Notes under the pieces: generated by a model
Told to the model about the DNA's origin: nothing
What the model saw: the letters and a program-made list of their open reading frames with translations, nothing else
Databases searched by the model: none
Position numbers and translations under genes: made by a program
NCBI GenBank assembly: GCA_965205425.1
Contig: CBDBGZ010000002.1
Location: forward strand, 1 to 55,019
Reading direction: 5' to 3'
Length of the DNA: 55,019 bases
Source: Nitrosopumilus sp.
GTDB taxonomy: Archaea > Thermoproteota > Nitrososphaeria > Nitrososphaerales > Nitrosopumilaceae
In this document: positions 51,906-55,019 of the stretch, piece after piece
Numbering within the stretch: the first letter of the stretch is position 1
Layout: each line of letters starts with the position of its first letter

Positions 51906-52093
51906 AAACAATATCGTCTAAGTTGGCGGTCAAGTATGCAAACTTTCATGGAGGAGAACTCAATTTCAGTAATGGCCGCCAAACTAGAGGTTCTCAAATT
52001 ATAGTACACATAGGAGAATAAAACAAAGACGGTATCAATGATTAAAATTTATTTGAAAAGTTGACAAATAATTCACAACTGTAAAGATCGCAA

Positions 52094-52302
52094 TTATCTA
52101 AAGAGGGAGAATTTGGAACGAGTCAAAAACAATGTAGAAACAAGACCAATACTCAAAATGCCTAATGCTAAAAATCCAAATTCAGGAATTACTTTAGTAC
52201 TCATGATTTTAATTTCATTAGAATGAGAAGAAATAAGAATTACAAGTTTTGTACCTGAAGATGTAATTTCAGATTCAAATTCAGTTATTTCATCATCTAC
52301 TA
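52094..52302 (-). pseudogene. C-terminal remnant of a PEFG-CTERM surface protein, cut by IS630
   Basis: ...VDDEITEFESE...IKIMSTKVIPEFGFLALGILSIGLVSTLFLTRSKFSLFR-stop: PEFG, TM helix and basic tail. Confidence 0.8.
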
Positions 52303-53261
52303 TAGTTTAGGCATATAAATTCTGAATAAACTGTCAAGTATTTTAACCCAAAAGATCTAGATCGTAGAATCAATTCATGAAACCATGTCAAAGAGTACAA
52401 GACAATCCAAGGTTTCCTCTGGGAATCAATTCATGAAAGGTACAAGCATTAATTTTTTGAGAAAAGCATGTAAAAATGAACGTAATGCAAAAGCAAAGAT
52501 AAGACTAAAGGCTGCAATTTTACGCAAACAAGACATGAGATATTCTCAAATATGCATCAGTCTTGATATCATACCATCAACTCTTAGTAATTGGTTAAAC
52601 CAAATGAACCGAGAGGGAATATCTGCATCACGCCGCAAGGAATATTCTGGCTCTAGATGTTTCTTAAATAAAAAACAACTAGTGTCATTAAGAGATGATC
52701 TGATTTCAGGTCCAGAAAAGTTTGGATTTAACCAATTCATGTGGAGTACAAGAATGGTAATTACACATGTGAATAAAAAATACAACACACTATACTCTGC
52801 AAGAGGAATGCGTGAATTGCTGCACAGAATTGGATTCTCATCTAAAAAACCACGTCCCACACATCATAAATCAGCCTTAAAAGAGGAACAAACCCGTTTT
52901 AAAAAAACGCAAAAAGGAGTATCAAAAAATATTCCAAATTGGGATACACCACACTATGTCTGGATGAGTCAACAAACAAGATAGCTCCAAATATCAAAAA
53001 AGGCTGGTATCTAAAAGGAAAAAATACACAAACCAAAATCAACTATACTCGAGAAAAGTTTCAATCATTTGGCGCATTGGGCAATAACGATGTATTTTTT
53101 TGCAGGTTCTATGATAAATCAAACACAGACTCATTTCTTGATTTTTTAGAATTACTGCAAAAACAATTTGGCAAGAAACTGTTATTATTTGCAGACAATG
53201 CATCATACCACAAAAGTGTTAGAGTAAAAGAATTTCTCAAAGCACCAAAAAATAAAGGTAA
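52303..53261 (+). mobile_element. IS630-family element (two ORFs, -1 frameshift), interrupted by IS110; 3' part lost
   Basis: TA|TAG left end; ORF A 52385-52984 (HTH; KKPRP); slippery TTTTAAAAAAAC at 52897-52908; ORF B with LDE and DNASYH; the PELNPIE-type third catalytic motif is absent. Confidence 0.88.
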
Positions 53262-53375
53262 CCATATGTGAATAAACAACGAAATTTAGATGGTACTGCT
53301 GATTCTATAGTTTCTAAAAGATACACCTCCAAGAAAAAACCAAAGAAAATCATTAGGACTAGAAAGACAAAACCC

Positions 53376-54377
53376 ATGACCTATGTCGGAATTGATTTGC
53401 ACAAAGAATTCTTACAGGTCGAAACAATGGATGATAAAGGACATACATTATTCAATGAAAAAATTACAAACACCAGAGGGGATATCAAAAAAGCATTTTC
53501 TGCAATCCCAAAAAACTCAAAATGTGTAATGGAATCATCATCTGTCTGGTATGGCGTGTTTAGGTTTCTGCGAGACGAACTAGGATTTGATGTAATACTA
53601 TCAAACCCATATCACACAAAAGCAATTGCAGCATCAAAGAAAAAAACTGACAAGATTGATGCTCACATCTTGGCAGATTTGCTAAGAGGAGGATACATCT
53701 CATCTTGTCATGTACCAGAAAAAGATACCGTGCAAACAAGACAACTGGTGAGATATAGAACCAAACTAGTCCGCAACAGGACAAGGATGAAAAATTTGAT
53801 TCACAGTATAACCTTACAAAATGCAATCAAGATACCAGGAACTGCATTTTCTGATTCATATGTGCACAAACTGTTGGGATTAGATGACTATCGAATAGAT
53901 GGATATCTCAAGATGATAATATCAATCAATGATAGAATCGCAGAGTCAGACATGAGAATCAAGGATGCTCTAAAACATGATTCTAACGCACAACTCTTAG
54001 AATCAATACCTGGTGTTGGAAGATTTACTGCATTAACCATATCCTCTGAAATTGACAATATCGAAAGATTTTCAGATTCTCACAAACTGTGTTCATATGC
54101 AGGAATTGTACCATCGGTGAGAAACTCAGCTGACACCATACGCCATGGGTCCATAACAAGAAGAGGAAGTAGCATGTTACGCTGGGTTCTGGTGGAGGCA
54201 GTACATTCTCATGTAAGATATGCAAAAAACAGCACCATTACAAATTTTTACAAACGTCTTGCAAAAAAGAGGGGGACATCAAAAGCTGCAGTGGCAGCAG
54301 CATCCAAACTGTTGAGAATAATTTACTGGATGTTAAAAAACAACATGACATTTTACCAGTGCATCAAAAATGCATAA
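53376..54377 (+). CDS. IS110 DEDD recombinase (frame open from 53268; ATG 53376 precedes the RuvC domain)
   Basis: YVGIDLHK, MES, KTDKIDA, SIPGVG and YAGIVPSVRNSA motifs. Confidence 0.96.
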   Translation: MTYVGIDLHKEFLQVETMDDKGHTLFNEKITNTRGDIKKAFSAIPKNSKCVMESSSVWYGVFRFLRDELGFDVILSNPYHTKAIAASKKKTDKIDAHILADLLRGGYISSCHVPEKDTVQTRQLVRYRTKLVRNRTRMKNLIHSITLQNAIKIPGTAFSDSYVHKLLGLDDYRIDGYLKMIISINDRIAESDMRIKDALKHDSNAQLLESIPGVGRFTALTISSEIDNIERFSDSHKLCSYAGIVPSVRNSADTIRHGSITRRGSSMLRWVLVEAVHSHVRYAKNSTITNFYKRLAKKRGTSKAAVAAASKLLRIIYWMLKNNMTFYQCIKNA

Positions 54378-54520
54378 TGAAACATTATGATCAGAACTAT
54401 AATCCTCGTTAAACACATTGAGGGAGATCCTCGTTTTGTAACTGCGGCATGGTTCTGATAAATGGATGAAGAATGGTACTGAGGGAGATCCTCGAATAGA
54501 TATGTGTCCGGTTTCATCTT
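54373..54520 (+). ncRNA. Predicted bridge/seek-like RNA of the IS110 element
   Basis: 5' hairpin plus two internal-loop domains, each with TGAGGGAGATCCTCG; loop segments match the element junctions. Confidence 0.75.
54419..54494 (+). repeat. 15-bp direct repeat TGAGGGAGATCCTCG (54419-54433, 54480-54494)
   Basis: Exact copies; each forms a GAGG-GAGAT-CCTC hairpin. Confidence 0.95.
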
Positions 54521-54916
54521 TTGAAAATGAATGGGATCATCTCTAGCGGTAGCCATTCTCATGTGTTGCAAAAGAGTGCAAATGTTTTTAAAGATTTCAC
54601 ATAGATATGTGTTTAGGTCACGCCTAGATTAAACCGAATAATTTAGATCAGAGAAGAATTTTCAAGAAATAATGGACTCTAAACCGTGCAAAAACTGTGA
54701 TGATTTGGCAAGAAAAAACATCGAATTGGAAATCAAAATCATGGAATCTTTAACCTAGCCCCAAACAATGAGGGACAATCTGAGATATTTGCATCGTTTA
54801 ACTTTTAATTCTAGATTTTTAGAGCATTTTCAAAAATAAAAAAAGGCTAGTTCAAAGGCGAACTAACTCGACTGCCAATCACACTTTATTGTATTGTTTT
54901 CTAATTAAACTTTATG

Positions 54917-54987
54917 TGGACTGGCTGGGAATCGAACCCAGACCTCTCAATTGACAGTCGAGAACTCGACCTTCAAGCTACCAGCCC
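54917..54987 (-). tRNA. Atypical tRNA: GUC (Asp) anticodon on a tRNA-Ala-type acceptor stem
   Basis: GGGCTGG TA GCTT GAAGGTC GAGT T CTCGA CTGTCAA TTGAG AGGT CTGGG TTCGATT CCCAG CCAGTCC A; G3·U70 and A73. Confidence 0.85.
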
Positions 54988-55019
54988 ACAAAACATATTA
55001 AAAAATACAAAGTAATAAT

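Follow-up and report, generated by a model that had tools for sequence, protein, structure and literature searches.

Does the right-hand part of the window, by which we mean the whole 55,019-nucleotide stretch analysed here (positions 1 to 55,019 of the forward strand of contig CBDBGZ010000002.1, assembly GCA_965205425.1, Nitrosopumilus sp.), carry an RNA-guided insertion sequence of an archaeon, and which letters of its RNA would read the target and which the element's own ends? An initial annotation, made from the letters of the window alone, had proposed an archaeal IS110/IS1111 recombinase followed by a bridge-like RNA, and all of the motifs that it quoted are present where it placed them. 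From the comparison with relatives described below, we are highly confident that positions 53260–54606 represent an active-looking element of the IS1111 group (IS110 family), with a recombinase and a predicted bridge/seek RNA of about 130 nt (roughly 54390–54522) that would pair with both the target and the element's own ends. The earlier proposal of an IS1111-type element with target and donor guides in a 3' RNA is thus upheld, by compensatory changes in the helices and by the co-variation of guides and flanks in 19 guide classes. The host genome (9 contigs, 2.2 Mb) contains archaeal amoA, and recombinase copies of 99% identity lie at other sites in another Nitrosopumilus metagenome-assembled genome (MAG); judged by these 2 markers, the host is a Nitrosopumilus-like ammonia-oxidising archaeon.

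The element is composed of the following parts:
53260..54606, plus strand: whole insertion sequence, 1347 bp, AACCATATGTG...CACATAGAT, starting with AACCATATG
53260..53272, plus strand: left-end tip, with the terminal extension AACCA (53260–53264) and then the subterminal inverted repeat TATGTGAA (53265–53272)
53376..54377, plus strand: recombinase gene, 333 amino acids and a stop (open reading frame 53376–54374, stop codon 54375–54377)
54596..54606, plus strand: right-end tip, with the subterminal inverted repeat TTCACATA (54596–54603) and then the extension GAT

The boundaries were defined by comparing filled with empty sites. The uninterrupted target reads GTATGTGTTTAGG in all 6 empty copies (left ends of a repeat designated X, described below); therefore, the element was inserted between T and A and occupies 53260–54606, with the crossover T|A in the arrangement GT|AACCATATG...CACATAGAT|ATGTGTTTAGG. 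The filled site minus the empty site is exactly the element, and no target duplication is present. Because T and A flank both junctions, the element boundary can slide by 1 nt. In the window, the left junction reads G-T|AACCAT and the right junction ATAGAT|ATGTGTTTA; for the circle, the predicted junction is ATAGAT|AACCAT, or in longer form ...TTTCACATAGAT|AACCATATGTGAA.... The initial annotation had the element excised at a shared A, giving the target GTAATGTGTTTA and the circle junction ATAGATACCAT; the empty sites correct both, each being wrong by one A, the circle junction being one A short.

Three full copies of the element, 100% identical, are present in the same genome (the window, C5:1379–2740, and C9:239001–240356), together with 3 partial copies, 2 of which are cut by contig ends (100% identity) and 1 of which is internal (99%). 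The left junctions of all 6 read G-TAACCATATGTG behind unrelated sequence; at the 3 right junctions, TGTGTTTAGGTC follows in 2 and ATTGTTGTAGAT in 1. In a class of relatives (L031–L041), the targets have TT or TG where the donor has TA, and at all parsed sites the left junction has TA and the right junction TT or TG, which fits an exchange directly after the shared T without duplication. The left tip AAC[CT]ATATGTG is common to all parsed relatives. The subterminal repeats TATGTGAA/TTCACATA are 8 bp long with extensions of 5 and 3 nt, which places them near the lower limit of published lengths (7–17 bp for IS1111 repeats in the available text of PMC11208160); the 8-bp repeat does not rise above chance in the window alone, where it falls outside the 25 longest, and it is conserved in the relatives.

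The recombinase is intact and belongs to the DEDD type, as the initial annotation had read it. Residues 4–145 match PF01548 (DEDD_Tnp_IS110, RuvC-like; E 9.6e-28), residues 205–292 match PF02371 (Transposase_20; E 2.2e-23), and the protein scores 250 bits against the model NF033542, “IS110 family RNA-guided transposase” (cut-off 140). It aligns over its full length with ISCro4 (PDB 9t56) and IS621 (PDB 8wt6), with E about 3e-12. The catalytic residues were placed through the ISCro4 alignment, the IS621 match having about the same E-value: the motifs GIDLHK, MESSS, KTDKIDA, and P-x4-S(251) lie opposite the corresponding motifs of ISCro4, and D7, E53, D92, D95, and S251, which align with the DEDD+Ser catalytic set (D11, E60, D102, D105, and S241 in IS621, as given in the available text of PMC11208158), are invariant among the paralogues. 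The window's genome contains 4 further paralogue groups at 56–63% protein identity (tblastn). The description of the enzyme as compact does not stand, since its 333 amino acids are no smaller than IS621 (328-amino-acid chain) or ISCro4 (341-amino-acid chain). Placement of the element in the IS1111 group is supported by its layout; the solved relatives used in the comparison are IS110-group enzymes.

The non-coding sequence 3' of the recombinase gene is 229 nt long (54378–54606), compared with 116 nt on the 5' side (53260–53375), and its plan is common to all relatives. We aligned 30 distinct 3' non-coding sequences from the window's genome and from Nitrosopumilaceae MAGs. Without guidance, RNAalifold predicted 5 helices with 25 pairs, 8 of which show compensatory changes, and these helices build 2 domains, each composed of a stem, an internal loop, and a hairpin:
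54390..54459, plus strand: target-binding domain, defined by RNAalifold, pair counts, and guide permutations
54390–54395/54454–54459, plus strand: helix 1, target-binding domain
54404–54408/54443–54447, plus strand: helix 2, target-binding domain
54409–54418, plus strand: 5' guide of loop 1, TTAAACACAT
54419–54433, plus strand: hairpin of the target-binding domain
54434–54442, plus strand: 3' guide of loop 1, TTTTGTAAC
54464..54509, plus strand: donor-binding domain, defined by RNAalifold and pair counts
54464–54468/54505–54509, plus strand: helix 4, GGATG/TGTCC, donor-binding domain
54469–54479, plus strand: 5' strand of the donor loop, AAGAATGGTAC
54480–54494, plus strand: hairpin of the donor-binding domain
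54495–54504, plus strand: 3' strand of the donor loop, AATAGATATG

In this alignment, 99.3% of the paired cells can pair, versus 30–48% when the partners are slid by 1–3 columns, and none of 500 shuffles reaches the observed pairing or co-variation score. Two-sided changes occur at 8 pairs in 44 cells; in the donor-domain hairpin, 2 pairs have compensatory changes in 6 and 10 of the 30 sequences. The same 15-nt sequence TGAGGGAGATCCTCG forms both hairpins (54419–54433 and 54480–54494), and the stem of the first domain lies in the inverted repeat ATCAGAACT/GGTTCTGAT (54390–54400/54449–54459). The window on its own gives modest signals: its sequence folds at −42.5 kcal/mol (z = −2.13), which is unremarkable; 7 of 200 shuffles fold as well, and the 9-mer TAAACACAT occurs 3 times in the window versus 1.5 times expected. 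The significance derives from comparing the relatives.

Two details of the structure first proposed need revision. The closure GATGAA/TTCATC suggested for the second domain does pair, in 86.6% of cells, versus 100% for GGATG/TGTCC, and neither closure has two-sided changes. The hairpin placed in front of the 2 domains is present as a local feature across the stop codon, and it was rejected as a conserved part of the RNA, because it has no consensus pairs in 19 relatives:
54373..54389, plus strand: local hairpin CATAATG-AAA-CATTATG

The guides were compared with insertion sites across the family. Of 78 scanned elements, 60 were parsed and 18 were not; 10 of the 60 rows, with the left end missing or of abnormal length, were dropped, and the 50 kept included 2 duplicates, leaving 48 distinct insertion sites with 19 classes of 5' guide. 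The 5' guide carries the right target in reverse-complemented form, and the 3' guide has the same letters as the left target's top strand. The segment TAAACACAT (54410–54418) pairs with the right target ATGTGTTTA over 9 nt. The complementarity had been given as TAAACACATT (54410–54419), of which T54419 lies in the hairpin stem; likewise, the donor match is ATGGT/ACCAT, 5 nt rather than 6. That is to say, both complementarities exist, and both are shortened because the target is one base shorter than proposed. Across the 48 sites, the reverse complement of the 5' guide matches the right target in an exact run of at least 7 nt in 34, with a mean run of 7.19 nt versus 3.57 nt in 2054 cross-class pairs (1.4% of which reach 7 nt); at the level of classes, the mean run is 6.67 versus 3.80±0.27 when permuted, and none of 5000 permutations reaches the observed value. 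Examples of such right targets are (i) ATGTGTTTA in the window family (9 nt); (ii) ATATGTTT for a one-base variant in another MAG; (iii) ACAATCATAA in L044 (10 nt); and (iv) TGATTCATA in the L031 class, for which copies of one repeat provide 12 sites.

The 3' strand of loop 1 corresponds to the left target followed by TA and the first bases of the left end; in the window it contains GTAA at 54438–54441. Compared with the 5 nt to the left of TA, the 3' guide has 3.21 of 5 identities versus 1.55±0.26 when permuted, again with none of 5000 permutations reaching this value, and matches across the whole junction of 8–10 nt occur in L025, L028, L044, L045, L054, and L062. The initial annotation had suggested collecting homologues, building a covariance model, and asking whether loop segments follow the target sites; this check was run, and the loop strands do track their targets (0 of 5000 permutations for each strand). 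In each 3' strand, the 2 bases after TA correspond to the partner DNA that lies beyond the crossover after integration: they match the left end in 35 of the 48 sites and the right target in 25 of the 48 sites, versus 16% in cross-class pairs. By analogy, these bases may be counterparts of the IS621 handshake guides described in the available text of PMC11208158 and PMC13626964, here on the bottom-strand guide.

The second loop resembles the element's own ends. ATGGTA is located at 54473–54478, of which ATGGT is complementary to ACCAT of the left end over 5 nt. ATAGATA (54496–54502) is the right end plus the next A, and the identity continues without mismatch over 12 nt of the right junction (54496–54507 is the same as 54601–54612). 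In 10 of the 12 element types listed, in which the motif is intact, the 3' strand of loop 2 reproduces the final 7 nt of the right end together with TA. The loop strands and the ends also change together: ATAGATA occurs with the right end CATAGATA and ATGGATA with CATGGATA (an A/G switch), and the 5' strand has ATGG with the left end ACCAT and ATAG with ACTAT (C/T variants). Judged by these junctions and loop strands together, the element inserts site-specifically after T, into a site of 12–13 nt that is defined by the 2 strands of loop 1, and its ends match the second loop.

A further likeness links the donor loop to the interior of the left end:
53288..53298, plus strand: AGATGGTACTG, a motif about 28 nt inside the left end and a second copy of the donor loop's 5' strand

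The variable word shared by AGATGGTACTG (53288–53298) and AATGGTACTG (54469–54481) changes jointly in both places among lineages (GGTAC, GGTTG, GGCAC, AGCAT, GGTAT, and GGCAA). The mean shared run is 6.28 versus 5.22 when permuted, in 7 classes, and 17 of 2000 permutations are as high; the repeat is also found in L026, L028, L031, L043, L099, and L103. It is conceivable, and we regard it as a tentative proposal, that donor recognition involves this additional left-end site, either as DNA bound by the donor loop or as a decoy in the 5' untranslated region, perhaps alongside the circle-dependent outward promoter described below. Such a left-end site, if real, is not described for IS621 or ISEc11.

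The alternative that best survives these data is that only the first domain guides, as a target “seekRNA,” whereas the ends are recognised by the recombinase through the subterminal repeats, so that the second domain would be a protein-binding scaffold with an inherited likeness to the ends. According to the available text of PMC11187229, IS1111 seekRNAs are short (82–96 nt) and carry the target matches, and end recognition may differ owing to the subterminal repeats. In addition, each donor strand has a single variable position, the match of the 5' donor strand spans only 5 nt, and the second copy of the donor strand in the left end hints at something beyond simple pairing with the tip. By contrast, the second domain has the same architecture as the first and has the compensatory changes in its hairpin given above; in 10 of the 12 types listed, those with the motif intact, its 3' strand follows the right end and TA, including the A/G switch; and the 2 bases after TA follow the right target well above the cross-class rate. 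Weighing both sides, we consider guidance by the first domain alone improbable.

Still less probable is that no RNA is involved, the recombinase instead using a group of DNA sites in the non-coding end, and the likeness to the flanks arising from a preference for end-like sites. The target (TATGTGTTTAGG) does resemble the left end (CATATGTGAATAAAC), and the fold z-score of the single window is low. However, DNA-binding sites do not require the two-sided helix changes seen here; the guides differ among classes while the ends remain constant, each guide following its own target; and homologous enzymes have been shown to be RNA-guided (PMC11208160, PMC11208158, and PMC11187229, in their available text). 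We therefore regard this explanation as very improbable.

Several observations weigh against an active RNA-guided element with 2 guiding domains. (i) The left-target match in the window comprises only GTA(AC); TTGTAAC is found in 3 of the 6 copies of the window family. (ii) Matching is imperfect, with guide runs of only 2–6 nt in 14 of the 48 sites, and the copy at C9:239001–240356 is half-matched, its target TA-ATTGTTGTAG sharing 6 of 10 positions with the guide. (iii) The register between guide and crossover differs by 0–2 nt among classes, and a single fixed register was rejected on account of these shifts. (iv) Of 20 additional, more divergent relatives that were sampled, only 8 were parsed, 2 of which duplicate earlier loci, and the 6 new ones have runs of 6–9 nt in 3 and 3–5 nt in 3; by eye, L094 has 8 nt and L096 a 9-nt left-junction match. 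(v) Donor co-variation is confined to one two-state position per strand and consequently reflects few independent events. (vi) In the 3 A-type rows, those of the window family, the central position of helix 2 (54406) is T, as opposed to the G of most other rows. (vii) On contig C4, 6 perfect target sites are empty. (viii) Over 53000–54900, the contigs of 4 runs contain no joint indicative of a circle or an empty site, contigs being poor at representing rare forms. That the element is a recently dead relic, whose guides record past targeting and whose present copies are immobile, would accommodate the 6 empty sites, the T in helix 2, and the lack of a circle junction in these contigs, but is scarcely credible for an open reading frame that is intact with all catalytic residues, that lies in 3 full copies identical over 1.35 kb at different loci, and whose 99% identical counterparts in another Nitrosopumilus MAG occupy other sites with the guide variant TTAAACATAT and an 8-nt site match. 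In run X3, one joint connects 54443 with 53331 through 29 other letters and has no ready interpretation.

For the active RNA-guided element, which remains our preferred reading, we propose the following mechanism. By analogy with the bacterial homologues, the RNA would be made, bind the recombinase, and direct recombination: a recombinase tetramer would hold the RNA, loop 1 would pair with both strands of the target, and loop 2 with the circle junction. In the first domain, the 5' strand (TAAACACAT) would pair with ATGTGTTTA, the top strand on the right side of the crossover, and the 3' strand (TTTTGTA+AC) with the bottom strand from the left target through the core into the first bases of the element's left end. 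In the second domain, the 3' strand (ATAGATA+TG) would pair likewise for the right end, and the 5' strand (ATGGT) with the left-end tip ACCAT. Ser251 would cleave next to T, as in the bacterial enzymes, and the excised circle (...CACATAGAT|AACCATATG...) would recombine with the target after T, without duplication. The target programmed in the window would be the terminal inverted repeat of an IS66-family element.

Candidate transcription signals and a small hairpin motif lie between the donor-binding domain and the right end:
54519..54522, plus strand: T4 run immediately past the donor domain, where the RNA may end
54544..54555, plus strand: small conserved hairpin motif TAGCGGTAGCCA, 2 predicted pairs
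54578..54592, plus strand: block GCAAATG-TTTTTAAA, like a B recognition element (BRE) and TATA box, 14–29 nt before the right end, facing outward

The sequence CATCTTTTG around the T4 run is conserved in most of the 30 aligned rows, and the run may be an archaeal oligo-T terminator that ends the transcript after loop 2. The block GAAAT(G/A)-(T/C)TTAAAAA stands at the same distance from the right end in 14 of 14 among the classes listed; it resembles an archaeal BRE/TATA box and may act as an outward promoter. From it, transcription would start a few bases past the right end and, in the circle, read into the left end and the recombinase gene. Together, the block at 54578–54592 and the T4 run at 54519–54522 suggest a circle-dependent transcription unit of archaeal type. 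In the TAGCGGTAGCCA hairpin, one pair has changed from CG to UA in 2 of the 19 sequences compared, which is a weak signal.

The target is the terminal inverted repeat of X, a 1371-bp element of the IS66 family. X has 6 copies on contig C4, inverted ends GTATGTGTTTAGGTC/GTACGTGTTTAGGTC, 8-bp target duplications in 5 of 5 among the copies listed, and a transposase matching PF03050 (E 7.4e-39). One X copy on contig C5 has the element at both of its ends. The locus itself is flanked by 2 broken elements:
54607..54741, plus strand: IS66-family element X remnant, 135 nt, whose terminal repeat GT|ATGTGTTTAGGTC is the target, its first 2 bases lying at 53258–53259
52385..53257, plus strand: truncated IS630-family transposase gene (helix-turn-helix and DDE_3 pieces, from domain matches), which is context and not target

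The IS630 gene was considered as the interrupted target and rejected: intact copies continue with AATAAAGTAATCATCAG, and the right flank is the end of a different repeat, X. The IS630-family gene breaks off at 53257, and past the insertion the IS66-family element is reduced to 135 nt. The locus has been rearranged or deleted beyond a simple insertion. The empty X copies whose left repeats match the guide perfectly lie at G000 C4:208441, 225767, 258256, 291690, 298490, and 304665, and the right repeats of the same 6 copies read GTACGTG, with 1 mismatch to the guide. An Rfam scan of 52000–55019 gave only a transfer RNA (tRNA) as significant (E 4.4e-11, above the gathering score), and the 2 other matches at E ≤ 1 overlie this tRNA and are below their gathering scores. 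The tRNA gene (54917–54987, minus strand; RF00005, 57.4 bits) is located 310 nt downstream of the element.

The element has many relatives. A scan of one genome per species found 64 loci, nearly all in MAGs of Nitrosopumilaceae (Nitrosopumilus and Cenarchaeum). The copies of the 99% identical recombinase in the other Nitrosopumilus MAG carry a one-base guide variant, and their best site matches that variant over 8 nt. A covariance model of the 2 domains hits 17 places in the window's genome, 14 of them with E ≤ 4e-16. Of 151 genomes sampled from the family, 19 have matches, representing 9 of 27 genera; 2 of the genomes have at least 20 matches each. Weak matches to the model (E about 1e-6) at G000 C9:75529–75664 and C5:226994–227109 may be decayed or orphan guide regions.

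Some relatives are nested or mixed. The guides of sister elements designated “B” are directed at the left end of related elements (AACCAT|ATGTGAA...), and these sister elements stand in tandem before frameshifted “D” copies at G000 C9:246100–248441 and C8:46965–49303. Contig loose ends at 53264 (window 53264–53265) in runs X1 and X4 place a “B”-type element inside the left end of the present element in other samples. The “C” copies (G000 C9:39595–40578 and 5 others) are chimeras, of B type in the left end (ACTATA+ACCATATGTGCC) and the 5' half and of D type in the 3' half and the guides. These chimeras apparently arose by nested insertion followed by recombination. The divergent relative L099 (G039:C20:23506–25403) has a direct repeat of about 30 bp, ATATTATTCGTTTTGAAATTTCAGGTATAATG, on both sides.

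The reading matters in several ways. It places a complete, apparently active (predicted) RNA-guided recombinase system in ammonia-oxidising archaea, which are globally abundant. At least 19 guide variants occur naturally alongside their landing sites, a series that could yield the pairing rules, including guide length, register, and tolerated mismatches. A native recombinase that is predicted to be programmable could start genome engineering in these archaea. Moreover, these insertion sequences appear to aim their guides at the ends of other insertion sequences, their own relatives included, which would give rise to nested and chimeric elements.

On the sequence comparison, the element is an archaeal member of the already known IS1111-type bridge/seek RNA elements, and it leaves the known mechanism unchanged. 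The available text of Durrant et al. (PMC11208160) reports bridge RNAs predicted in the right end of 93% of IS1111 elements; archaeal IS110/IS1111 members are mentioned there and in the Discussion of PMC11187229, and 662 archaeal IS110 recombinases are counted in the accessible part of a preprint (10.1101/2024.06.21.599552). The available part of a survey of archaeal insertion sequences names IS110 once and does not mention a guide RNA (PMC13343696). We found no characterised archaeal bridge/seek RNA system in the literature on IS110/IS1111, bridge RNA, seekRNA, archaea, and Nitrosopumilus, the supplements of which may list archaeal predictions.

The closest published counterparts are the IS1111 seekRNA elements ISEc11, ISPa11, ISKpn4, and ISPst6 (Siddiquee et al. 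2024, PMC11187229, as far as its available text describes them). In the IS1111 group, the non-coding region lies downstream of the transposase gene, the inverted repeats are subterminal, and the match to the top strand lies 5' of an overlapping match to the bottom strand. The present element shares with the ISEc11 group (i) the DEDD recombinase and long downstream non-coding region; (ii) what appear to be subterminal inverted repeats with short asymmetric extensions, and insertion without duplication; (iii) the top-complementary RNA segment 5' of the bottom-complementary one, overlapping at the crossover; and (iv) natural re-programming between relatives. It differs in its archaeal host and in being known from sequence alone. 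The subterminal repeat is 8 bp with extensions of 5/3 nt, compared with 11–13 bp and 7 (or 6)/3 nt in the published elements, and the right end appears to contain a full BRE/TATA-like box, in contrast with the split −35/−10 junction promoter of the ISEc11 group.

IS621 and ISCro4 (Durrant et al. 2024, PMC11208160; Hiraizumi et al. 2024, PMC11208158; PDB 8wt6 and 9t56; available text) have a homologous protein with the same catalytic residues, target and donor loops each composed of a stem, an internal loop, and a hairpin with 2 guide strands, cleavage after the T of a short core, and core-adjacent bases that match the partner DNA. By contrast, the predicted RNA of the present element is in the right end rather than the left, the order of the top- and bottom-strand guides is reversed, the handshake-like bases are on the bottom-strand guide, and the core is T|A rather than CT.

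The choice of another mobile element as target also has parallels. The IS1111-family elements IS4321/IS5075 are said to sit in the terminal repeats of Tn21-family transposons. ISEc21 inserts in IS3-family transposase genes, according to the available text of PMC11187229. Compared with these, the prey of the element in the window is the terminal repeat of an IS66-family element, and that of its sister elements is the left end of related IS110-family elements.

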